Origin: Eledone cirrhosa
Lineage: Eukaryota
Assembly: GCA_964016885.1 (NCBI GenBank)
Contig: OZ024765.1
Coordinates: forward strand, 1,178,001-1,242,000
DNA: 64,000 nucleotides
Direction of reading: 5' to 3'
Shown: in pieces, positions 20,506-64,000 of the stretch
Numbering within the stretch: the stretch's first letter is position 1
Layout of the letters: each line of letters opens with the position of its first letter
Program-made: the position numbers and the translations under genes
Notes under the pieces: model-generated
What the model was told of the DNA's origin: nothing
What the model saw: the letters and a program-made list of their open reading frames with translations, nothing else
The model's database searches: none

Positions 20506-22149
20506 ATGGCAAATGAGCAAGAGAAATCACCAGACCACTGCAATGACTCTAAAACATCACTCTTTCATAAACTTAACTTAACTGAGCACAAGATTATTCA
20601 TACTGGAGAGAAACCGTATCACTGTAATATCTGTGATAAATCATTCTCTAGTAGTGAATTGGCTAGCCACACATGTGCGCATACAGAAGAGAAACCATGT
20701 CTCAGTGATATCTCTGGTAAACCATTCTCTCAAAGTAGTGAATTGACTGTGGACACCCTTGCGCATGCAGATGAGAAACCAAATCTCAGTGATATCTCTG
20801 GTAAACCATTCTCTCAAAGTAGTGAATTGACTGTTGACACACTAACACATACAGGAGAGAAACTACAGCACAGTGATATCAGTGGTAAATCATTCTCTCA
20901 AAGTAGTAAATTGACTAACACACTTACACGTACAGGAGAGAAAGCGCATCACTGCGATATCTGTGGTAAATCATTTTCTACAAGAAGTATATTGACTCGT
21001 CACAAACATACGCACACAGGAGAGAAACCATATCATTGTAATATCTGTGGTAAATCATACACTAGAAGTAGTGACTTAACTATTCACATGCGTACACATA
21101 CAGGAGAGAAACCATATCACTGTAATATCTGTGGTAGATCATTTTCTAAAAGTAGTCTCTTAGCTGATCACAAGCGTGTTCATACAGGAGAGAAACCATA
21201 TCTCTGTGATATCTGCGATAAATCATTCGCTCAAAGTAGTGAATTGATTATTCACACACGTATACATACAGGAGAGAAACCATATCAGTGTGATATCTGT
21301 GATAAATCATTCTCTAAAAGTTATTTCTTGACTGTTCACACTCGTACACATACAGGAGAAAAACCATATCACTGCGATATCTGTGATAAATCATTTTCTA
21401 CAACAAGTATATTGACTCGTCACAAACATACGCATACAGGAGAGAAACCATATCACTGTAATATCTGCGATAAATCATTTTCTACAAGTGGTAACTTGAC
21501 TGTTCACATGCGTACACATACAGGAGAGAAACCATATCACTGCGATATCTGTGATAAATCATTCTCTGCAAAAAGTAACTTGTCTGATCACACACGTATT
21601 CATACAGGTGAGAGACCATATCACTGTGATATCTGTGGTAAATCATTCTCTACTAAATGTAACTTGGCTGATCACACACGTATTCATACAGGAGAGAAAC
21701 CATATCACTGTAATATCTGTGAAAAATCATTCTTTCAAAGTAGTTCCTTAACTTCTCACATACGTACACATACAGGAGAGAAACCATATCACTGCGATAT
21801 CTGTGATAAATCATTCTCTGGAAGTAATCAGCTAACTTCTCACACACGTATACATACAGGAGAGAGGCCATATCACTGTGATATCTGTGGTAAATCATTC
21901 TTTCAAAGTAGTTCCTTAACTACTCACACACGAATTCATACAGGAGTGAAACCATATCGCTGTGATCTCTGTGGTAAATCATTTGCTCAAAGTATAAGTT
22001 TAACTACTCACACACGCAGTCATACAGGGGAGAAGCCATATCACTGTGATATCTGTGGTAAATCATTTACTCAAAGTAATAAATTGACTGTTCACAAACG
22101 TTCTCATACAGGCGAGAAACCATATCATTCTGTCATGTTCAAGCCTTAA
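20506..22149 (+). CDS. Tandem C2H2 zinc-finger protein, 547 aa
   Basis: 14 canonical CxxC-x12-HxxxH fingers with TGEKPY linkers, preceded by about 5 degenerate fingers. Likely acceptor TTTCAG at 20105. Confidence 0.95.
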
Positions 22150-25216: not shown

Positions 25217-25522
25217 TCTATACCGATTTATGAAGATCGGTATATATATATATATATATATTCATATGTTAAAGGTAAAGGAAAGAAGAGTGCTCTATGT
25301 ATAGTACAGAGCTATTTAATTATATATATGTTGTTTTTTCTTCTTAATTTATTTTAAAATATCCAAATGCAGACGAATTATTAATTTCTTGTATTTTTCA
25401 ATAAATTAAGCGAAAGAGGTAAAAAAAGGATGAAATAATAAAGAGTTCCACAAAATTAATTCAGAAACGAAAATTAATATTGTTTTTCTCATTGAGTTGT
25501 TTCCCCTATCATAGTCCTTACT

Positions 25523-25531
25523 TCCTTTTCC
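25523..25531 (+). promoter_or_regulatory. TCT initiator / 5'TOP pyrimidine tract of RPL13
   Basis: CTTCCTTTTCC matches the YYC(+1)TTTYY motif typical of ribosomal protein genes and is followed by a GTAAGT donor at 25549. Confidence 0.75.
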
Positions 25532-25548
25532 GGTTTACGTACGATCGT
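25525..25548 (+). other. RPL13: RPL13 non-coding exon 1
   Basis: TOP start plus a consensus donor. Exon 2 begins at an acceptor 8 nt before the ATG, which requires an upstream exon. Confidence 0.72.
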
Positions 25549-25990
25549 GTAAGTATAGTCTTTCATTCCTCTCTCTAATATTTTCACAAAATCTTCATCC
25601 ATCTCCTTTCTAAAATATATTTTTAATTTACATTTTAATCACATTTGTTAAACATTCATTAACGCTTCATATTATCATATTTTTAAATATTTAAACCTTT
25701 ATAAATAAGATATTTTCCACCATATCTATCCACGCTACACTTTCTATCCATCTCTCTCTCGCTTCAAAACATGGCTTCATAGACATTTTTTCCGTATTTT
25801 TGTTTTTTTTCAAATATTTTAAATAATTAAATATCGAAAATAATTATAAATAAAGATTAATTTATGTATAAATTATATGATTTCTTGCTTGTCACATCCC
25901 AGTATTGAGAAATGTTGCTGTTTTAGTCAGGTTAATTCGCACATGTGGATATATAAACCTGATTAGTTCTCCCTTAAGATAGATCTTGTG

Positions 25991-27558: not shown

Positions 27559-28784
27559 AATATAGTTTCCATTTATTAATATCGTATTTTTACTCCAATT
27601 AATTGTTGAGTGCTTTATATCAGTTATAAAAATATTTGCTTGTTGTATCCCAACAATTTAAATAGAACTTTTACATATATATATATATTGATGTGATTTG
27701 AAACCCCGTATATTACTGTAAATGTGGCCACATGGTCCAGTGGTTAGCGTGTTGGACTTCTGATCATAGTGTGTGGTGTGTTCCTGAACAAAACCTTTCA
27801 TTTCATGTTGCTCCTGTATAGCATACTCGGCTGTAGCTGGGGAGCTATACCTGCGATGGACTAGCATCTTGTCCCTTTTATAAGGACTGAACACCATTAA
27901 CATCGATCTATTCATTAGCAAATCATCATCATCATCGTTTAGAAGGGAATTGTCCCACTTGAGGCAAGATTGGTCGGGTGACCGTGTCTCGCTCGTATAG
28001 GGCTGGCTATCTGGCAGGTTTTCTAGGGTGGGATGCCCTTCCTAACACGAACCATATTACAGTGTGGACTGGGTTCTTTTGCCGTGACACCTACACGATA
28101 TCGGCAGACGCCGTGCTTTGACGCATAGAGTTACGGCCCTTGCCATTCTGAGTTCAAATCCCGCCGAGGTTAACTTTGCCTTTCATCCTTACGGGGTCGA
28201 TAAAATAAAGTACTAGTAATGTACTGGATAATTGCTGGCCTTGTGCCAAAAGTAGAAACTATTTGATTTATTTGGACTGGATGTTGTGGTACCGATTTTA
28301 TAGAGGAAGGAGGTGGCGTTGGTGGGAGGATGGAGTAGAGGCAGTGGGATGTGGGTGGGAGGGTGGAGTAGAGGCAGTGGGATGTGGGTGTATATTTGGT
28401 TAAGTCAGCCTACTGACTAGGTTTAACTTTGTACATAGGCAAGGTGGGTCTTCTGTATTGCTGCGTGACGCCAAAGATCTCGGTCCAGTGACATTGTCTT
28501 GGAGAGGTGTAAGGTCGGACTTTATCAGATCGCCCCAGGTTTTTCTGGGTCTACCTACTCCGTAACTTCCATCCATTTTGATCGCCCTGCACTTTTTTAT
28601 ACAGCATCACGTGACCATACCAACGTAGTCTTTCAAGTATACAGCATCTGATCCCTCTTAGTCCTAATTTATATTCTGTTTAATAGTAAAGGTGATGTTA
28701 AAACAAATTTAAATATTTTTTTCTGCTAAATAATTATGTTAAGATTTAATTAATTAAATAAATTCTTTTATTTCAGTTCTTACA

Positions 28785-29030
28785 ATGGCACGTCTTGGAA
28801 ATCAAACAGTGCCCAATGGTCACTTCCATAAGGACTGGCAGCGCTATGTCCGAACCTGGTTTGACCAGCCGATGCGCAAGAAGCGCCGGGCGAGAAGGAG
28901 GATGCAGAAAGCTAGGAGGGTTGCCCCCAGACCAGCAGCTGGTCCTCTCCGACCCATCGTCACATGCCCTTCCATCAAATACAACATGCGTGTTCGTGCT
29001 GGACGTGGTTTCACCATTGAAGAGTTGAGG
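28785..29030 (+). CDS. RPL13: 60S ribosomal protein L13 (eL13), coding exon 1 of 3
   Basis: [32 protein letters not shown]...[12 protein letters not shown]. Acceptor TTTCAG ends at 28776; donor GTAAGG at 29031; phase 0. Confidence 0.97.
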
Positions 29031-29087
29031 GTAAGGACTGTGTTGGTTGAGAGAAGGTTGTAGACTGTGTGGTGACACACCTGTATA

Positions 29088-29280
29088 TATTTAATATAGA
29101 AAAGGCTTCTACAGGACTAGAACTGTTTCATTCGGAAGAAATCATCAGGAAAGCCCTGATGATTTCTCCCAAATGAAACAGTTCTAGTCCTGTAGAAGCC
29201 TTTTCTATACTAAATATTTATACTCTGCTTTGTATTGAGTACCTTACTTACTGTGGTTATCCCCGATTGGGCCAGGGATA
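29088..29280. mobile_element. Inverted pair of Penelope-like hammerhead-bearing fragments (family A)
   Basis: Arms of about 60 bp around 29150-29154. Hammerhead core on - (29104-29155) and on + (29156-29200). Flank homologous to 7470-7586. Confidence 0.72.
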
Positions 29281-30745: not shown

Positions 30746-30919
30746 AAAGCTGGCATCAGCAAGAGGGAAGCCCCCACAATTGGCATTGCCGTAGATTACA
30801 GAAGACGGAGTATGTCTGCAGAGGCTCTCCAGTGTAATGCTCAGAGACTGAAGGAATACAAATCCAGGTTGATTCTCTTCCCCAGAAAGATGAGCAAACC
30901 TGGCAAGAAGGACTCTTCG
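30746..30919 (+). CDS. RPL13: RPL13 coding exon 2 of 3
   Basis: [58 protein letters not shown] between AG (30745) and GT (30920); phase 0/0. Confidence 0.96.
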
Positions 30920-30985
30920 GTAACTATGCCTTGTTTTTATTTATTTTGGCCCTTCACAAATACAACTGGGGTTTCCTATCATTAA

Positions 30986-31194
30986 CTCTTTAGCATTTAC
31001 TTTACTCTATATTTACTGTTGTATTATTTTCATGGTAAACCCTGCATTTTACATAATGTAGAATCAACAGGCTTTTGATATTTATTATGGGAACTATACC
31101 TTAACATAAGTATGAGCAGCTGATTGTAGTCGGTTTGAACAGAAAAGAGGTGAAAGAATTCTGGCCGGATATGGCTGGTTTAAATGCTAAAGGG
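30986..31194. mobile_element. piggyBac-type MITE (diverged)
   Basis: TTAA|CTCTTTAGCATTTA ... TAAATGCTAAAGGG. A further truncated copy lies at 35154-35340. Confidence 0.75.
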
Positions 31195-31503
31195 TAAAAA
31201 CACTCTAGAAACCTCCAATGAGATATAATCTTTTGTGGGGCCAGCTAATCTTATATATGTGAGCTGTAACATGACAGGACTGGGGTCCCTATCATTAAAA
31301 CACCCTAAAAACCTATTAGATACTACCTTACCTTGTATGGGGCTAGCTAAACCTACATAGGTGTGAGTTGTAATATGACTGGACTGACATCTCCAGTTGT
31401 GAAAATAGCCCCCCATAAAATTGTGTTGGAAGAGGGGTAGGTTGTTATAGAAAACCACAGCTAACTTTAGTTAGGGTTGGTGTGAGAAGATTTGGTATGT
31501 TAT

Positions 31504-31591
31504 TTGACCAGTCCAGTGATGATAAATCATGTACCACTCTGACCGTAGTGATGGACACACAAACACCCATATATCTGAGGATATTGGTCAA
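31504..31591 (+). ncRNA. Box C/D snoRNA, copy 1 (U32/snR40-like guide)
   Basis: Stem TTGACCA/TGGTCAA; C box GTGATGA at 31516; D' CTGA at 31539; C' GTGATGG at 31548; D CTGA at 31575. Sense strand in a ribosomal-protein intron. Confidence 0.88.
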
Positions 31592-31639
31592 CAGCTTTAT
31601 ATATTTGGTGGTGGTGGGGTGGGGTAATTTGAGCCGGGC

Positions 31640-32530
31640 TTGACCAGGCACTATATATATATTGGTGAGTACAGTTATTTTACTGTGGTGTAAGGTAATG
31701 TCTTGTTTAGCCCTGGGTATATCTTGACCAGGCACTATATATATATTGGTGAGTACAGTTATTTTACTGTGGTGTAAGGTAATGTCTTGTTTAGCCCTGG
31801 GTATATCTTGACCAGGCACTATATATATATTGGTTAGTACAGTTATTTTACTGTGGTGTAAGGTAATGTCTTGTTTAGCCCTGGGTATATCTTGACCAGG
31901 CACTATATATATATTGGTTAGTACAGTTATTTTACTGTGGTGTAAGGTAATGTCTTGTTTAGCCCTGGGTATATCTTGACCAGGCACTATATATATATTG
32001 GTTAGTACAGTTATTTTACTGTGGTGTGGGGTAATGTCTTGTTTAGCCCTAGGTATATCTTGACCAGGCACTATATATATATTGGTTAGTACAGTTATTT
32101 TACTGTGGTGTGGGGTAATGTCTTGTTTAGCCCTGGGTATATCTTGACCAGGCACTATATATATATTGGTTAGTACAGTTATTTTACTGTGGTGTAAGGT
32201 AATGTCTTGTTTAGCCCTGGGTATATCTTGACCAGGCACTATATATATATTGGTTAGTACAGTTATTTTACTGTGGTGTAAGGTAGTGTCTTGTTTAGCC
32301 CTGGGTATATCTTGACCAGGCACTATATATATATTGGTTAGTACAGTTATTTTACTGGGGTGTAAGGTAATGTCTTGTTTAGCCCTGGGTATATCTTGAC
32401 CAGGCACTATATATATATTGGTTAGTACAGTTATTTTACTGTGGTGTAAGGTAATGTCTTGTTTAGCCCTGGGTATATCTTGACCAGGCACTATATATAT
32501 ATATTGGTTAGTACAGTTATTTTACTGGGG
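31640..32530 (+). repeat. 84-bp minisatellite, 10 full copies plus 1 partial
   Basis: TTGACCAGGCACTATATATATATTGGTTAGTACAGTTATTTTACTGTGGTGTAAGGTAATGTCTTGTTTAGCCCTGGGTATATC at an exact 84-bp period. Confidence 0.95.
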
Positions 32531-33158
32531 TGTGGGGTTATGTCTTTAGCTCCTGGTGTGACTTGACCAAACTCTGCAGGATATTTTACTGTGGGGTGGG
32601 GTAGTGTCTTGTTTAGCTCTGGGGATATCTTGACCAAAGACCTACACATATATGTTGGTCAGTACAATTATTTTACTGTGGTGAGGTGTGTAGGGTAATG
32701 TCCTGTTTAGCCCTAGGTATGGGGTAAGGAAGCCACTGGTTGACTTTAGAATAAAACCCACTGACTACATCACATGAAAAACTACTCTAATACTACATAT
32801 TTTCACAATTTGTCCACCAGTAGAGGTACTATAAGCATTGGAAATAACAGACTCTTAGGTTATTGTTTGTTTTCTTTTTTTGCTAAATTAATATAGGGTG
32901 TTAAGTATTCAAAAAGGTTTTTATTTTTCACCTATATGTATATATATATTCGTGGGAAGCAGGTCCTGTCAAAAGCAACCATCTTCCATTGATCTGGCTG
33001 GGTCCCCAAGTGTGACCAGCTGATCTCATAGATGTTATTCAACCATTTTGAGGGGGTTTACCAGCCCTGGGTCCCCTGCTGGTTGGTTTTGTCCAGAAAG
33101 GTTTACCAATGAATATGTAGATTTTTATGAAGTAAAATCAGGTGTGGTGTGTTGTTAT

Positions 33159-33246
33159 TTGACCAGTCCAATGATGATAAATCATGTACCACTCTGACCG
33201 TGGTGATGGACACACAAACACCCATATATCTGAGGATATTGGTCAA
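33159..33246 (+). ncRNA. Box C/D snoRNA, copy 2
   Basis: As copy 1, with C box ATGATGA and one A>G change between D' and C'. Confidence 0.88.
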
Positions 33247-33906
33247 CAGCTTTATATATTTGGGGGGGGGGGGTAATTTGAGCCGGGCTTGGCCAGACTA
33301 TATATATATTGGTCGGTACAGTTATTTTACTGCGGTGTGAGGTAATGTCATTACCTCCTGGTGTGACTTGACCAAACCGTGCAGGATATTTTAAAAGTAG
33401 GGTAGTGTCTTGTTTAGCTCTGGGGACATCTTGACCAAACACTACACATATATGTTGGTCAGTACGATTATTTTGTGGTGGGGTGTGTAAGGTAATGTCA
33501 TGTTATGTCCTGGGTGTGGGGTAAAGAAGCGACCATGACTACATCACACGAAAGACCCTACTCTAATACTACATATTTTCACAACTATCTGTCCACTAGA
33601 AGAAATACTATAAACATTGGAATTAATAAGATATTTTTGCTAAATTATTACAGGGTGTTAAGTCTTCAAAAAAATTTTTTGTTCACCTATATGTATATTC
33701 GTGGGAGCAGAGACCTCAAACCACTCCTCCTAGCAGGTCCTGTCAAAAGCAACCATCTCTGATTGATCTGACTGATCTCATAGATGTTATCCAACCATTT
33801 TGAGGGGGTTTACCAGCCCTGGGTCCCCTGCTGGTTGGTTTTGTCCAGGTTTACCGATGAATATGTAGATTTTTATGAAGTAAAATCAGGTGTGGTGTGT
33901 TGTTAT

Positions 33907-33994
33907 TTGACCAGTCCAATGATGATAAATCATGTACCACTCTGACCGTAGTGATGGACACACAAACACCCATATATCTGAGGATATTGGTCAA
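33907..33994 (+). ncRNA. Box C/D snoRNA, copy 3
   Basis: As copy 1, with C box ATGATGA. Confidence 0.88.
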
Positions 33995-34146
33995 CAGCTT
34001 TATATATTTGGTGGGGGGGGGGGGTAACCTGAGCCAGGCTTGACCAGACACTATATATTGGTCAGTACAGTTATTTTACTGAGGTGTGAGGTAATGTCTT
34101 GTTTAGCTCTGGAGGTGTCTTGACCAGGCACTATATATATATATAT

Positions 34147-34450
34147 TGGCCTTGCAATCAAAAGGTTGTGAGTTCAATTCTCAGACCGGGTGATGTGTTG
34201 TTTCCTTGAGCAAGACACTTTATTTCACATTGCTCCAGTTTACTCAGCTGTAGAAATGAGATGATAGGGACTGGGGTCCCTATCATTCCACTGTAAAGTG
34301 GTCGTGGAGGTGCCACGGCAAAAAAGCACCCAGCACTCACTGTAAATGAGGTTGGTGTTAGGAAGGGCATCCAGCTGTAGAAATCAAGCCAGAATCAATT
34401 CCCGTCCCACCCTTGCAAGCAGGGAAAAGTGGACGTAAAATGAAATGATG
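34147..34450 (+). mobile_element. 5'-truncated CORE-type SINE
   Basis: Reverse complement of 107-447 lacking the A-box end. Inserted within an 84-bp-type unit. Confidence 0.85.
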
Positions 34451-34692
34451 GTCAGTACAGTTATTTTACTGCGGTGTGTCTTATTTAGTTCTGGGAGTGG
34501 GGTACTGTTTTAGTTAGCCCTGGTATTTAGTTAATGTCTTGTTTGGCCATGGGTATATATTGGTTAGTACGGTTATTTTTGTGTGGTGAGATGTGTGGGG
34601 TAAGGAATCAAACCCATGACATTAGTCCAACAACATTACCACTATACTACTCACCTCTTTAGGACAGGAGGTTATTTATAATATTTTACTGT

Positions 34693-34780
34693 TTGACCAG
34701 TCCAGTGATGATAAATCATGTACCACTCTGACCGTAGTGATGGACACACAAACACCCATATATCTGAGGATATTGGTCAA
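34693..34780 (+). ncRNA. Box C/D snoRNA, copy 4
   Basis: Core identical to copy 1. Confidence 0.88.
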
Positions 34781-35424
34781 CAGCTAAATATATTTGATAG
34801 GAGGGGTGGTGGCTTGTTGAGCTTGGCTTGACCAGACACTACATATACAACTTTATATGAGGCCCGCTAAACCTACATAAGTGAGCTGGAACAACATATG
34901 ACTGGGGTCTTATTAAATACCTGTGAAGCCTCCTATGAGATACAACCTTGTAGGACTGAGGTCCCCTATCATTAAAACACCCAACAACCCTATGTGGTAA
35001 AAACCGTGCTAAGCCTACGCCTGTGAACTAACAAAATGACAGGTTCTCTATCATTAAAACACTCTAAAAACCTATGAGATACAACCTCGTAGGAGGCCAG
35101 CTAAACCTACATAGGTTTGAGCTGTAACAACATAAGACTGAGGGTCTTATTAACCCTTTAGCTTTTACATTACCCTATATATACTGTTGTATTTTTGTGG
35201 TAGAAGCTTTACCTCAAATGATATTGAAGCTATGGGATTTTGATGTTATTTATTTCGAGAACAATGCCTTAACATAAGTATGAGTGGCCAGTTACAGCTG
35301 GTTTGAAGAGAAAGAGGTGAGATAATTATGGCCAGTTAAAATACCTGATAAACCTGCTATGAGATGCAACCTTTTGTGAGGCTAGCTAGACCTACTACAT
35401 AGGTGTGAGGTGGTGTGTTGTTAT

Positions 35425-35512
35425 TTGACCAGTCCAATGATGATAAATCATGTACCACTCTGACCGTAGTGATGGACACACAAACACCCATATATCTGAG
35501 GATATTGGTCAA
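35425..35512 (+). ncRNA. Box C/D snoRNA, copy 5
   Basis: Core identical to copy 3. Confidence 0.88.
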
Positions 35513-35789
35513 CAGCTTTATATATTTGGTGGGGGTGTCTTGACCAGGTCAGTACAGTTATTTTACTGCGGTGTGTCTTATTTAGTTCTGGGAGTGGGGT
35601 ACTGTTTTAGTTAGCCCTGGTATTTAGTTAATGTCTTGTTTGGCCATGGGTATATATTGGTTAGTACGGTTATTTTTGTGTGGTGAGATGTGTGGAGTAA
35701 GGAATCAAACCCACGACATTTGTCCAACAACATTACCACAATACCACTCACCTCCTTAGGACAGGAGGTTATTTATAATATTTTACTGT

Positions 35790-35877
35790 TTGACCAGTCC
35801 AGTGATGATAAATCATGTACCACTCTGACCGTAGTGATGGACACACAAACACCCATATATCTGAGGATATTGGTCAA
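35790..35877 (+). ncRNA. Box C/D snoRNA, copy 6
   Basis: Core identical to copy 1. Confidence 0.88.
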
Positions 35878-36134
35878 CAGCTAAATATATTTGATGGTGT
35901 GAGGTAACTTCAGCCAGGCTTGACCAGACACTATATATTGGTTAGTACAGTTATTTTACTGCGGTGTGGGGGTATTGTCTTGTTTAGCTCTGGGTGTGGG
36001 AAAATTGTGATAGGATGTAAGGACTACGCTGGGGTTGATATAGAATTTCCCCTCCCTGCAGGTTGTTGACCTTGGGGCTGAATTAGAAATTAAGGACCAC
36101 TTCTCATTTGTCTCTCTTGTTATTCTCATTGCAG

Positions 36135-36350
36135 GCTGAAGAGATCAAGTTGGCTACCCAGTTGAAGGGTACGTTGATGCCTATTGTAAACAGGGTGAAG
36201 AAAGACAGACCTCAAGTGCTGACCAAGGACATGAAGAGATTCCGTGCTGTTCACACAATCAAGACTGCACGCAATGACAAACGTATGTTTGGTCGAAGAC
36301 AGAAGATAGCCGAGAGGTTGGCTGCAGAAGAGGAGTCTAAGAAAAAATAG
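36135..36350 (+). CDS. RPL13: RPL13 coding exon 3 of 3
   Basis: AEEIKLATQLKGTLMPIVN...ARNDKRMFGRRQKIAERLAAEEESKKK*. Acceptor TTGCAG ends at 36134. The spliced total is 82+58+71 = 211 aa. Confidence 0.96.
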   Translation, partial: AEEIKLATQLKGTLMPIVNRVKKDRPQVLTKDMKRFRAVHTIKTARNDKRMFGRRQKIAERLAAEEESKKK

Positions 36351-36363
36351 GAAGCTTAGGATT

Positions 36364-38232: not shown

Positions 38233-39541
38233 GAGTTTTAGTCCTTTAGAAGCCATTTCTATGTTAAATATAGCATATACCCTACTAATACCTTCACAAT
38301 TAATCAATTTCAGTCCTATAGAAGCCATTTCTGTATGATATATTGCATATACACTATTTCCATCAAATTAATGAGTTTTAGTGCGGTAGAAGCCATTTCT
38401 GTATTAAATATTGCATATACACTACTATTTCCATCAAATTAATTAGTTTTAGTGCGGTAGAAGCCATTTCTGTATTAAATATTGTATATATACTACTATT
38501 TCCTTCGAATTAAATAATTCTAGTTCTTTATAAGCCATTTATGTATTGAATATTGCATATACACTATTATTTCCATCAAATTAATGAGTTTTAGTGCGGT
38601 AGAAGCCATTTCGGTATTAGATATTGCATATAAGCGACTATTTCCATCGAATTAAAGAGTTATCTTCATTTAGAGGCCATTTCCGTATTAAATATGGCAT
38701 TTATACCACTAATACCCCTCATATAAATGAATTTTAATCTTGTAGAAGTAATTTCTGTATTAAATATTGCATATACACTACTATTTGATTTGAGTTAAAG
38801 CATTCAACTCCTTTAGAAGCCATTTCTGTATTAAATATTGCATATACACTATTATTTCCATCAGATTAATGAGTTTTAGTGCTGTAGAAGCCATTTCTGT
38901 ATTAAATATTGCATATACACTACTATTTCCATCAAATTAATTAGTTTTAGTGCAATAGAAGCCATTTCGGTAGTAAATATTGCATATAAACGACTATTCC
39001 CATCGAATTAAAGAGTTCTCTTCATTTAGAAGCCATTTCCGTATTAAATATGGCATTTATACCACTAATACCGCTCATATTAATGAGTTTTAGTCTTGTA
39101 GAAGTCATTTCTGTATTAAATATTCCATATATACTAATATTCGATTAAAGTTAAAGCATTCTACTCCTTTAGAAGCCATTTCTGTATTAAATATTGCATA
39201 TACACTACTATTTCCATCATATTAATGAGTTTTAGTGCTGTATAAGCCATTTCTGTATTAAATATTGCATATACACTACTGTTTCCATCAAATTAATGAG
39301 TTTTAGTTCGGTAGGAGCCATTTCTGTATTAAATATGGCATATATACTACTAATACCCCTCATATTAATGAGTTTCCGTCTTGTAGAAGCCATTTCTGTA
39401 TTAAATATTGCATATAATCTTCTAATACCCTCACAATTAATCAATTTCAGTCCTGTAAAAGCCATTACTGTAATAAATATTGCATATACACTACTATTTC
39501 CTTCAAATTAAAGCATTCTAGTTCTTTATAAGCGATTTATG
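38233..39541 (-). repeat. 71-bp satellite (satB), diverged block in reverse orientation
   Basis: AGAAGCCATTTCTGTATTAAATATTGCATATACACTACTATTTCCATC recurs every ~71 bp. It is the reverse complement of the 58413-64000 monomer. Confidence 0.93.
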
Positions 39542-58412: not shown

Positions 58413-61400
58413 GCTTTTAAAGGACTGAAATTGATTAATTCTGAGGGTATTAGAAGATTATAATGCCATATTTAATACGGAAATGGCTCCTAAAGGACTA
58501 AAACTATTTAATTTGAATCGAATAGTAGTGTATACTGCAATATTTAATACAGAAATGGCTTCTACAAGACTGAAAACTCATTAATATGAGGGGTATTAGT
58601 AGTATATATGCCTTATTTAATACGGAAATTGCTTCTAAATGAAGAGAACTCTTTATTTCGATGGAAATAGTCGTGTATATGCAATATTTAATAGAGAAAT
58701 GGCTTCTACTGCACTAAAACTCCTTAATTTGATGGAAATAGTAGTGTATATGCAATATTTAATACAGAAATGGCTTCTACAGCACTAAAACTCATTAATA
58801 TGAGGGGTATTTATAGATTATATGCCATATTAATACATAAGTGGCTTATAAAGAACTAGAATTATTTAATTCGATGGAAATAGTCCTGTATATGCTATAT
58901 TTAATGGAGAAATGCCTTCTACAGGACTAAAACTCATTAATTTGAGGGGTATTAGTAGTGTATATGCAAAATGTAATACAGAAATGGCTTCTACAGGAGT
59001 GAAACTCATAAATATGATGGGTATTATTAGATTATATGCCATATTTAATACAGAAATGTCTTCTGAAGGACTAGAACTCATTAATTTGAATCAAATAGTA
59101 GTATATATGCAATATTTATTACAGTAATGCTTCTACAGGACTGAAACTGATTAATTCTGAGGGTATTAGAAGATTATATGCCATATTTAATACGGAAATG
59201 GCTCCTAAAGGACTAAAACTATTTAATTTGAATCGAATAGTAGTGTATATGCAATATTTAATACAGAAAATGGCTTCTACAAGACTGAAACTCATTAATA
59301 TGAGGGGTATTAGTAGTATATATGCCATATTAATACGGAAATGGCTTCTAAATGAAGAGAACTCTTTAATTCGATGGAAATCGTCGTTTATATGCAATAT
59401 TTTAATAGAGAAATGCTTCTACTACTGCACTAAAACTCATTAATTGATGGAAATAGTAGTGTATATGCAATATTTAATACAGAAATGGCTTCTACAGCAC
59501 TAAAACTCATTAATATGAGGGGTATTTATAGATTATATGCCATATATTAATACATAAATGGCTTATAAAGAACTAGAGTTATTTAATTTCATGAAAATAG
59601 TCCTGTATATGCTATATTTAATGGAGAAATGCCTTCTACAGGACTAAAACTCATTAATTTGAGGGGGTATTAGTAGTGTATATGCAAAATGTAATACAGA
59701 AATGGCTTCTACAGGAGTGAAACTCATAAATATGATGGGTATTATTAGATTATATGCCATATTTAATACAGAAATGTCTTCTGAAGGACTAGAACTCATT
59801 AATTTGAATCAAATATTAGTATATATGCAATATTTATTACAGTAATGGCTTTTAAAGGACTGAAATTGATTAATTCTGAGGGTATTAGAAGATTATATGC
59901 CCATATTTAATACGGAAATGGCTCCTAAAGGACTAAAACTATTTAATTTGAATCGAATAGTAGTGTATATGCAATATTTAATACAGAAATGGCTTCTACA
60001 AGACTGAAACTCATTAATATGAGGGGTATTAGTAGTATATATGCCATATTTAATACGGAAATTGCTTCTAAATGAAGAGAACTCTTTAATTCGATGGAAA
60101 TAGTCGTGTATATGCAATATTTAATAGAGAAATGGCTTCTACTGCACTAAAAACTCATTAATTTGATGGAAATAGTAGTGTATATGCAATATTTAATACA
60201 GAAATGGCTTCTACATGCACTAAAACTCATTAATATGAGGGGTATTTATAGATTATATGCCATATTTAATACATAAATGCTTATAAAGAACTAGAATATT
60301 TAATTCGATGGAAATAGTCCTGTATAAGCTATATTTAATGGAGAAATGCCTTCTACAGGACTAAAACTCATTAATTTGAGGGGTATTAGTAGTGTATATG
60401 CAAAAATGTAATACAGAAATGGCTTCTACAGGAGTGAAACTCATAATATGATGGGTATTATTAGATTATATGCCATATTTAATACAGAAATGTCTTCTGA
60501 AGGACTAGAACTCATTAATTTGAATCAAATAGTAGTATATATGCAATATTTATTACAGTAATGGCTTTTAAAGGACTGAAATTGATTAATTCTGAGGGTA
60601 TTAGAAGATTATATGCCATATTTAATACGGAAATGGCTCCTAAAGGACTAAAACTATTTAATTTGAATCGAATAGTAGTGTATATGCAATATTTAATACA
60701 GAAATGGCTTCTACAAGACTGAAACTCATTCATATGAGGGGTATTAGTAGTATATATGCCATATTTAATACGGAAATTGCTTCTAAATGAAGAGAACTCT
60801 TTAATTCGATGGAAATCGTCGTGTATATGCAATATTTAATAGAGAAATGGCTTCTACTGCACTAAAACACCTTAATTTGATGGAAATAGTAGTGTATATG
60901 CAATATTTAATACAGAAATGCTTCTACAGCACTAAAACTCATTAATATGAGGGGTATTTATAGATTATATGCCATATTTAATACATAAATGGCTTATAAA
61001 GAACTAGAATTATTTAATTCGATGGAAATAGTCCTGTATATGCTATATATTAATGGAGAAATGCCTTCTACAGGACTAAAACTCATTAATTTGAGGGGTA
61101 TTAGTAGTGTATATGCAAAATGTAATACAGAAATGGCTTCTACAGGAGTGAAACTCATTAATATGATGGGTATTATTCGATTATATGCCATATTTAAATA
61201 CAGAAATGTCTTCTGAAGGACTAGAACTCATTAATTTGAATCAAATAGTAGTATATATGCAATATTTATTACAGTAATGGCTTTTAAAGGACTGAAATTG
61301 ATTAATTCTGAGGGTATTAGAAGATTATATGCCATATTTAATACGGAAATGGCTCCTAAAGGACTAAAACTATTTAATTTGAATCGAATAGTAGTGTATA

Positions 61401-64000
61401 TGCAATATTTAATACAGAAATGGCTTCTACAAGACTGTAAACTCATTAATATGAGGGATATTAGTAGTATATATGCCATATTTAATACGGAAATTGCTTC
61501 TAAATGAAGAGAACTCTTTATTCGATGAAATAGTCGTGTATATGCAATATTTAATAGAGAAATGGCTTCTACTGCCACTAAAACTCATTAATTTGATGGA
61601 AATAGTAGTGTATATGCAATATTAATACAGAAATGGCTTCTACAGCACTAAAACTCATTAATATGAGGGGTATTTATAGATTATATGCCATATTAAATAC
61701 ATAAGTGGCTTATAAAGAACTAGAATTATTTAATTCGATGGAAATAGTCCTGTATATGCTATATTTAATGGAGAAATGCCTTTTACAGGACTAAAACTCA
61801 TTAATTTGAGGGGTATTAGTAGTGTATATGCAAAATGTAATACAGAAATGGCTTCTACAGGAGTGAAACTCATAAATATGATGGGTATTATTAGATTATA
61901 TGCCATATTTAATACAGAAATGTCTTCTGAAGGACTAGAACTCATTAATTTGAATCAAATAGTAGTATATATGCAATATTTATTACAGTAATGGCTTCTA
62001 CAGGACTGAAACTGATTAATTCTGAGGGTATTAGAAGATTATATGCCATATTTAATACGGAAATGGCTCCTAAAGGACTAAAACTATTTAATTTGAATCG
62101 AATAGTAGTGTATATGCAATATTTAATACAGAAATGGCTTCTACAAGACTGAAACTCATTAATATGAGGGGTATTAGTAGTATATATGCCATATTTAATA
62201 CGGAAATGCTTCTAAATGAAGAGAACTCTTTATTCGATGGAAATCGTCGTTTATATGCAATATTTAATAGAGAAATGGCTTCTACTGCACTAAAACTCAT
62301 TAATTTGATGGAAATAGTAGTGTATATGCAATATTTAATACAGAAATGGCTTCTACAGCACTAAAACTCATTAATATGAGGGGTATTTATAGATTATATG
62401 CCATATTTAATACATAAATGGCTTATAAAGAACTAGAATTATTTAATTTGATGGAAATAGTCCTGTATATGCTATATTTAATGGAGAAATGCCTTCTACA
62501 GGACTAAAACTCATTAATTTGAGGGGTATTAGTAGTGTATATGCAAAAATGTAATACAGAAATGGCTTCTACAGGAGTGAAACTCATAAATATGATGGGT
62601 ATTATTAGATTATATGCCATATTTAATACAGAAATGTCTTCTGAAGGACTAGAACTCATTAATTTGAATCAAATAGTAGTATATATGCAATATTTATTAC
62701 AGTAATGGCTTTTACAGGACTGAAATTGATTAATTCTGAGGGTATTAGAAGATTATATGCCATATTTAATACGGAAATGGCTCCTAAAGGACTAAAACTA
62801 TTTAATTTGAATCGAATAGTAGTGTATATGCAATATTTAATACAGAAATGGCTTCTACAAGACTGAAACTCATTAATATGAGGGGGTATTAGTAGTATAT
62901 ATGCCATATTTAATACGGAAATTGCTTCTAAATGAAGAGAACTCTTTAATTCGATGGAAATAGTCGTGTATATGCAATATTTAATAGAGAAATGGCTTCT
63001 ACTGCACTAAAACTCCTTAATTTGATGGAAATAGTAGTGTATATGCAATATTTAATACAGAAATGGCTTCTACACAGCACTAAAACTCATTAATATGAGG
63101 GGTATTTATAGATTATATGCCATATTTAATACATAAATGGCTTATAAAGAACTAGAATTATTTAATTCGATGGAAATAGTCCTGTATATGCTATATTTAA
63201 TGGAGAAATGCCTTCTACAGGACTAAAACTCATTAATTTGAGGGGTATTAGTAGTGTATATGCAAAATGTAATACAGAAATGGCTTCTACAGGAGTGAAA
63301 CTCATAAATATGATGGGTATTATTAGATTATATGCCATATTTAATACAGAAATGTCTTCTGAAGGACTAGAACTCATTAATTGAATCAAATAGTAGTATA
63401 TATGCAATATTTATTACAGTAATGGCTTTTAAAGGACTGAAATTGATTAATTCAGAGGGTATTAGAAGATTATATGGCATATTTAATACGGAAATGCTCC
63501 TAAAGGACTAAAACTATTAATTTGAATCGAATAGTAGTGTATATGCAATATTTAATACAGAAATGGCTTCTTCAAGACTGAAACTCATTCATATGAGGGG
63601 TATTAGTAGTATATATGCCATATTTAATACGGAAATTGCTTCTAAATGAAGAGAACTCTTTAATTCGATGGAAATCGTCGTTTATATGCAATATTTAATA
63701 GAGAAATGGCTTCTACTGCACTAAAAACTCCTTAATTTGATGGAAATAGTAGTGTATATGCAATATTTAATACAGAAATGGCTTCTACAGCACTAAAACT
63801 CATTAATATGAGGGGTATTTATAGATTATATGCCATATTTAATACATAAATGGCTTATAAAGAACTAGAATTATTTAATTCGATGGAAATAGTCCTGTAT
63901 ATGCTATATTTAATGGAGAAATGCCTTCTACAGGACTAAAACTCATTAATTTGAGGGGTATTAGTAGTGTATATGCAAAATGTAATACAGAAATGGCTTC
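58413..64000 (+). repeat. 71-bp satellite (satB) with a ~715-bp 10-monomer higher-order repeat
   Basis: Marker GAAGAGAACT at 58641, 59354, 60074, 60789, 61506, 62218, 62934 and 63648. Confidence 0.96.

Follow-up and report, generated by a model that had tools for sequence, protein, structure and literature searches.

The window analysed in this study comprises 64,000 nt of the genome of the octopus Eledone cirrhosa (GenBank assembly GCA_964016885.1, contig OZ024765.1, positions 1,178,001 to 1,242,000 of the forward strand), and positions are numbered from its first letter. A single intron of the ribosomal protein gene RPL13 (eL13) in this window carries six nearly identical box C/D small nucleolar RNA (snoRNA) cassettes on the sense strand. 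The explanation to which we give slightly better than even chances is that these are tandem-duplicated guides whose assembly would be driven by flanking stems, which would be released by cuts in the spacers followed by trimming, and which are predicted to methylate one site of 18S ribosomal RNA (rRNA). The parts of this explanation that we infer are small-RNA expression, methylation, stem-driven assembly and the cutting step. The coding exons and cassettes are as follows.

28785..29030, + strand: first coding exon of RPL13 (eL13), PF01294 positions 2-74
30746..30919, + strand: second coding exon of RPL13, PF01294 positions 75-131, with spliced joints in run X4
31504..31591, + strand: copy 1 cassette with a two-tier stem, predicted mature snoRNA at about 31511-31582
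33159..33246, + strand: copy 2, box C with A and an extra variant before box C'
33907..33994, + strand: copy 3, box C with A
34693..34780, + strand: copy 4, box C with G, external stem longer
35425..35512, + strand: copy 5, box C with A, deletion in the 3' flank
35790..35877, + strand: copy 6, box C with G, end of box D 270 nt upstream of the 3' splice site
36135..36351, + strand: last coding exon of RPL13, placed by the X4 joint, without a Pfam match on its own

The host intron occupies positions 30920-36134 (+), is 5,215 nt long with GT..AG ends, and is excised as one unit. In the contigs of sequencing run X4, which comes from another sample and was judged to be RNA by its spliced joints (both GT..AG, depth 2708), the joint from 30919 to 36135 skips 5215 nt at a depth of 2708. 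Because this joint spans the array, all six cassettes lie in one RPL13 intron, as an earlier interpretation from the letters alone (the sequence-only reading) had claimed. X4 depth within the intron is 4-10, which is uninformative on snoRNAs or snoRNA-capped long non-coding RNAs (sno-lncRNAs), and contigs cannot show RNA ends. The reading frame stays open across the joined coding exons. The first coding exon has its sole match in the genome here, and is 96% identical to that of Octopus bimaculoides and 95% to that of O. sinensis. A divergent or duplicate RPL13 paralog was ruled out by the one genomic match and the 95-96% identity to octopus RPL13.

All six 88-nt copies begin exactly where the sequence-only reading had placed them, with start-to-start distances of 1655, 748, 786, 732 and 365 nt. 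Compared over 90 nt, copies 1, 4 and 6 are identical, copies 3 and 5 are one base off and copy 2 is two bases off. Alignment bore out the claim that the copies differ only at the degenerate R of box C (G in copies 1, 4 and 6; A in copies 2, 3 and 5) and at one base between D' and C', which lies directly 5' of box C' in copy 2. In every copy, a terminal stem brackets box C (RUGAUGA) and box D (CUGA). The proposed architecture was recovered in full, with boxes C, D', C' and D of copy 1 at 31516, 31539, 31548 and 31575; the D' box is perfect and the C' box has one mismatch to the consensus. A DNA search of the 3.0-Gb genome returned six cassette matches, all in the RPL13 array and no other. A guide-pattern search gave three further places in the genome, and the one inspected does not continue as an RPL13 cassette. 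No other snoRNA family was matched within RPL13 at E <= 0.5 in Rfam.

Guide targets were sought in the 18S and 28S ribosomal DNA (rDNA) of the same genome, and two elements of the cassette were assigned to 18S rRNA.

31527..31538, + strand: D' antisense element in copy 1, which pairs over 12 bp with 18S rRNA of the same genome and is unchanged in all six copies
31564..31570, + strand: part of the D-guide region, likely an extra-base-pairing element, which pairs over 7 bp with 18S rRNA directly 5' of the D' duplex

The best site of the D' guide is one 18S site, where 12 bp including three G-U pairs are formed and position 5 is a Watson-Crick pair at a G. The U33 copies of this genome target a U, and this G is found 2 nt 3' of it; the equivalent human site is numbered G1328. 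Yeast snR55 and snR40 modify sites 1269 and 1271, with the same 2-nt spacing (available text of PMC3116282), and the D' guide of snR40 directs Gm1271 and has human U32A as its homolog (available text of PMC4344503). The top Rfam matches in a 201-nt scan were snoZ221_snoR21b (E 4.8e-5) and then snR40 (E 0.0095). Each of these alignments depends on the D' guide together with a short ACCCA element ahead of box D; RF00300 is matched by all six copies at 29-31 bits. The target is regarded as the equivalent of snR40 Gm1271 because of the RF00300 and RF01201 guide alignments and the 2-nt offset from the U33 target. Judged by boxes and pairing, the cassette is a guide of the snR40/U32A/snoR21 type, a functional counterpart and not a formal Rfam member, and it is predicted to direct 2'-O-methylation of one conserved 18S guanosine. 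This identity was missed by the sequence-only reading. An orphan or novel guide had also been considered and was dropped after the 18S site was found.

The cassette shares the C-guide-D' arrangement and the same 18S G with snR40 of yeast, snoR21-Z221 of plants (RF00300), human U32A (SNORD32A) and fly Me18S-G1358, and shares the ACCCA element upstream of box D with snR40 and snoR21. The 7-nt extra-pairing element also occurs in the Rfam consensus of snoR21 and of snR40, and the D-guide region is likely to serve as such an element in the octopus RNA. Extra base-pairing is reported in most yeast snR40 genes and raises methylation in other snoRNAs (PMC3116282, in part). Unlike snR40, the cassette has no anchored second target and scores below the Rfam gathering threshold. 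When the second guide was compared with the 28S region used by snR40 for Um898, only 6 bp were formed and position 5 was unpaired. The second yeast site, in helix 18, was located in the genome's own 18S rRNA and gave about 6 nt of pairing by eye, which is not claimed. A scan of metagenomes with the guide pattern, which itself required the ACCCA element, found 51 loci, none of which (0/51) encodes RPL13, and 10 of 13 scanned metagenome loci reached the RF00300 gathering score. The Rfam spans of the genome's 18S (~2,870 nt) and 28S (5,100-6,300 nt) are very long, and rDNA units occur on at least four contigs.

The history of the array was assessed by comparing the cassettes with their flanks. 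In copies 1, 2, 3 and 6, the four that align cleanly (a deletion in copy 5 spoils the six-way alignment), variation affects 2 of 88 ungapped columns of the core but 23 of 106 of the 3' flank (Fisher p 2.6e-5); the contrast with copy 4 added has p 2e-9. Conservation drops at the stem ends in six of six copies, and the neighbouring homologous flank has many substitutions and indels. These results support constraint acting on the snoRNA core. The flanks, described earlier as visibly diverging, are indeed less conserved than the core; they are not unrelated, as they were duplicated along with the cassette and are retained in the younger pairs (upstream flank identity 237/243 between copies 4 and 6, and 496/539 aligned between copies 2 and 3). 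Selection or homogenisation had been offered as the cause, and constraint on the RNA stands while homogenisation is unneeded. Box C with A may have arisen once, in the ancestor of copies 2, 3 and 5, and a simple duplication tree fits; because the allele fits that tree, gene conversion is possible but not required. Differences among the spacers comprise base changes and indels, together with an 84-nt array and an inserted repeat.

The same comparison bears on the view that the array is mostly a neutral by-product of recent duplication and gene conversion, in which one or two copies would matter and no dosage would be gained. This view draws on the richness of the window in tandem arrays, on duplication units that include long flanks, and on the decayed copies in RPL13A and RPL4. 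It is made improbable by the drop of conservation at the stem ends of all six copies beside a much changed homologous flank, by the functional silence of both variable core sites, and by flank changes in copies 4 and 6 that lengthen the stem.

An assembly artefact is most unlikely, although the exact copy number rests on the assembly, the array is nowhere covered from end to end by a single contig piece, and runs X1 and X2 may be the assembly's own sample. The flanks of the copies differ by substitutions, indels, the repeat insertion and the 84-nt array. The depth of X1 and X2 is 10.7-25.3 over the duplicated segments against 4.3-9.4 over the other listed genomic pieces of at least 185 nt, which places the duplicated segments at about two to three times single-copy depth. 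Some contig pieces run from unique flank into copy 1, and X4 (the other sample) has pieces that lead out of copy 4 into its unique flank. Similar stacking is also found at five other loci.

In the mechanism that we favour, each copy would use its flanking stem to assemble a small nucleolar ribonucleoprotein (snoRNP) of its own, without reliance on the branch point. An endonuclease would then cut the spacers and so separate the copies, trimming would proceed to the mature ends, and the freed RNA would guide 2'-O-methylation of the conserved 18S G. Freed from acceptor distance, assembly would allow local tandem duplicates to work anywhere in the intron, and the duplicates would turn over by birth and death in a region where local duplication is rampant. 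Mammalian C/D snoRNAs, those of humans included, are mostly located ~70-80 nt upstream of the acceptor (PMC3845636), and long external stems lead to splicing-independent assembly (PMC5519232), according to the available parts of both papers. In seven octopus introns flanked by coding exons, the distance from the end of the last snoRNA to the acceptor is 135-726 nt, with 270 nt in RPL13. The flank duplex is stronger than 95% of shuffles in 30 of 36 copies from eight families, a count in which the short terminal stem is included and the copies are not independent. The long flank stems and the distance from the acceptor together suggest that assembly is stem-dependent and position-independent.

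The argument of the sequence-only reading, that release needs internal cuts or yields sno-lncRNAs, was supported: exonucleases alone would halt at the outermost snoRNPs, and a sno-lncRNA would therefore result, as in mammals. Internal cuts are favoured over sno-lncRNAs because such introns hold the sole copies found of three conserved guides. An EndoU-family gene is present in the genome, and EndoU is one candidate nuclease for the spacer cuts. EndoU has a role in the release of frog intronic snoRNAs. A splicing-independent route in frog oocytes is described in the available text of PMC11028025.

The competing account has no internal cutting. Loading would be sub-stoichiometric, so that an intron with one snoRNP would give a free snoRNA and an intron with two or more would give a sno-lncRNA of 0.44-4.4 kb; additional copies would raise the odds that at least one loads, and the long forms would accumulate and perhaps be functional. 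Two snoRNAs per intron have this documented outcome in mammals (PMC4234469 and PMC11028025, in part), a new enzyme becomes unnecessary, and all copies are far from the acceptor. We consider this account unlikely on balance. Strong external stems imply efficient loading, which would lock most guides in long RNAs, although such introns hold the sole copies found of three of them, and fly hosts with up to five H/ACA isoforms in intronic clusters suggest that invertebrates can resolve them (sources for flies seen in part).

Several results weigh against stem-assembled guides that are cut apart. The presence of EndoU carries little weight, since the enzyme occurs widely across animals. The coarse z-score scan of the RPL13 spacers found no conserved cleavage hairpin, with six windows at z < -2 in differing places, and this lack of a conserved cleavage signal equally favours the account without cutting. 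Two snoRNAs in one mammalian intron yield sno-lncRNAs and not free snoRNAs (PMC4234469, in part). With regard to identity, the Rfam check that the sequence-only reading had called for returned nothing at the gathering score anywhere in the window, and the snR40/U32A/snoR21-type identity lies below it: all scores are sub-gathering, at 31.1 against 44 bits for RF00300 and 24.6 against 50 bits for RF01201. An RF00133 search of the genome did not report the RPL13 cassettes. The D' guide contains three G-U pairs, and 10 of 300 shuffled guides score as well (p ~0.03). The D guide has no anchored target of at least 8 bp in the genome's own 18S, 28S or spacer tail. Elsewhere in the genome, one U33 copy and one U24-like copy have a decayed guide, and not every copy is kept.

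Piecewise removal of the intron, by recursive splicing or minor non-coding exons, would place each copy in its own lariat and preserve the rule of one snoRNA per intron. A weak AG|GTAATG motif does occur ~110 nt behind copies 1, 2 and 3; these sites end in AAG or GAG, have G-rich tracts and are absent behind copies 4-6. Strict YAG|GT candidates were found in none of five RPL13 spacers and in 1 of 15 across five introns, by a filter whose pyrimidine cut-off 4 of 12 reference acceptors fail. There was no ratchet joint among the 15 best-supported X4 joints (1298 further joints). This explanation is thus given very little probability.

Nine other C/D families were searched genome-wide and their hosts were then mapped, with family names taken from Rfam matches (U33, U24, U38, U58 and U14 below the gathering score). 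Contig handles below (C1, C4 and so on) serve to locate the matches. In RPL13A (C4:185289950-185301383, -), three U33 copies and one decayed copy lie in one 7.6-kb intron and three U34 copies lie in the next intron of 3.7 kb. The flanking exons of RPL13A are contiguous against solved uL13 chains, and an exon matches uL13 of the octopus ribosome map PDB 9eho over 40 residues. No U32-type copy was found at the RPL13A locus, unlike the human gene. RPL7A (C21:20587110-20591465, +) has a mixed cluster in a single 4.35-kb intron, made up of one U36 copy and five U24-like copies, and the exons on either side of this intron cover Pfam positions 11-46 and 47-86. RPL4 (C4:327461841-327469700, +) carries U18 in three introns: one of 4.3 kb contains two copies with intact boxes and two degenerate ones, and the remaining two contain a single copy each. 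The RPL4 copies at 327464915 and 327469006 form a near-identical duplication across an exon, and the two degenerate copies come after them.

Multi-copy introns therefore occur in all four hosts with coding exons flanking the snoRNAs (RPL13, RPL13A, RPL7A and RPL4) and in five of seven such introns, a small sample with a bias towards multi-copy families, which are detected more readily. That three further genes of this genome, RPL13A, RPL7A and RPL4, show stacking as well was missed by the sequence-only reading. Most copies pair with the expected kind of own-rRNA site over 9-15 bp, and the sole copies found of the RPL13 guide, U33 and U34 all lie in multi-copy introns. We tentatively suggest, as a generalisation that is rather more doubtful than probable, that octopuses have dropped the rule of one C/D snoRNA per intron across ribosomal protein genes, and that the resulting polycistrons need an animal endonuclease or yield abundant sno-lncRNAs.

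Additional clusters were observed outside this tally. RPS27A (C1:288908929-288913012, -) has six U58 copies, five of them with identical cores, upstream of its first coding exon and a diverged seventh in a later intron, and RPL39 (C11:27558836-27560973, -) has three U38 copies upstream of its first mapped coding exon. The U58 and U38 groups were excluded from the single-intron count on account of their position upstream of the first mapped coding exon. Six U14 copies occupy 2.5 kb at C5:33003688-33006232 (-) beside an snR56-like RNA, with two solitary U14 matches on C3 and C4. Behind U15 at C18:42089696-42091770 come a short C/D RNA in three copies, which has 28S matches, and another RNA in two copies. 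A tight run of SNORD79-, 24-, Z196/100- and 81-like C/D RNAs at C10:3790560-3791992 presumably resembles a non-coding host of the GAS5 type. No coding host was recognised for the U14 (C5), C18 and C10 clusters. SNORA50-, SNORD103- and SNORD53-like Rfam matches lie upstream at the RPL7A locus, and the U43 search gave two weak matches only.

Under the definition of Fafard-Couture et al., two or more snoRNAs in one intron of a host transcript, the RPL13 array is an intronic cluster. Animals mostly carry one snoRNA per intron (PMC7038934 and PMC11028025), and flies often break this rule (PMC6619189), as far as the available text of these papers goes. The portion of PMC11028025 Table S1 at hand lists same-intron clusters in flies (H/ACA Psi28S-3316a-e in dom; C/D Or-CD11a-c in RpL28 and Me28S-U2134a/b in RpL13A) and in worms (C/D K12D12.6-8 in top-2, three RNAs), and two platypus SNORD33 rows in RPL13A are flagged there as a same-intron cluster. 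The comparison with one snoRNA per vertebrate intron in the sequence-only reading was thus too narrow, since flies and worms have same-intron clusters that include two to three C/D copies. Because such clusters exist in flies and worms, the arrangement was already known; the novelty lies in the copy number and in the apparent prevalence for C/D guides in an octopus, neither of which was found described in the open-access literature searched. In the same partial sources, most fly clusters are of the H/ACA kind, those of the C/D kind comprise 2-3 members and most C/D snoRNAs are mono-intronic, whereas octopus C/D clusters reach six. Four C/D copies of fly DmSnR60 lie one per intron (PMC1821038, in part). 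Fly Me18S-G1358 has three copies, each mono-intronic, unlike the octopus guide, and human SNORD32A is mono-intronic in RPL13A, whereas the octopus host is RPL13 (eL13) with six in an intron.

Mammalian sno-lncRNA loci, such as the SNORD116 pairs of the Prader-Willi syndrome (PWS) region and mouse SNORD33-SNORD34 in RPL13A, likewise have at least two C/D snoRNAs per excised intron (PMC4234469, in part). They have two per intron, often via alternative splicing, whereas the octopus main intron holds up to six and these are the sole copies found. Plant and yeast polycistrons cut by RNase III (Rnt1, Pac1) are likewise multi-snoRNA precursors that need internal cleavage (PMC12508059 and PMC7038934, in part). 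In contrast, the octopus array is animal and intronic, with kilobase, repeat-bearing spacers and no recognised RNase III signal. The animal endonuclease for co-hosted snoRNAs is described as largely unknown (PMC12508059). Among the open-access titles listed on octopus and mollusc snoRNAs, none treats the organisation of cephalopod snoRNAs; the accessible part of an octopus ribosome preprint (PMC13321053) does not mention 'snoRNA' or 'methylation', and that of PMC7668251 adds nothing on a multi-copy intronic arrangement.

The snoRNA and its target are ordinary, and the interest lies in the genome-wide stacking and in the question of release. Release of several snoRNAs from one animal intron has its reference points in mammalian sno-lncRNAs and in the RNase III-type cuts of yeast and plants. 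In this octopus the hosts are highly expressed, and their multi-copy introns contain every copy found of some conserved guides. The RPL13 copies further carry natural allele tags (box C A/G and the copy 2 base) that could help to tell cutting from sno-lncRNA formation. A raised guide dosage would follow only if the copies are cut apart. Should the doubtful generalisation to octopuses hold, core rRNA methylation guides would be produced from multi-copy intronic polycistrons in a lineage known for RNA-level innovation.

Two repeats lie within the host intron.

31639..32546, + strand: tandem repeat derived from the 3' flank unit, with an 84-nt period and 10.8 copies
34145..34443, + strand: high-copy repeat inserted between copies 3 and 4, where DNA depth is very high and each edge has loose ends

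The 31639-32546 repeat unit and the spacers to 35990 contain both cassette stem-arm motifs around a TA run, with the snoRNA body absent. These units resemble a cassette minus its body and could pair with the arms of a neighbouring cassette. A long hairpin at ~29085-29220, within the first coding intron of RPL13, consists of satellite-related sequence. By eye, a pyrimidine-rich start resembling a 5' terminal oligopyrimidine (5'TOP) tract, followed by a GTAAGT donor, lies at 25521-25554; this is likely a non-coding first exon of RPL13, joined to the acceptor at 28776. Upstream of RPL13, a C2H2 zinc-finger array of 18 units with an 84-nt period occupies 20599-22127. Satellite blocks extend over 38233-64000, with a 71-72-nt unit at 38233-39511 and at 58413-64000 (the latter reversed, by eye) and ~18.6 kb of 41-nt-based repeat between these blocks.

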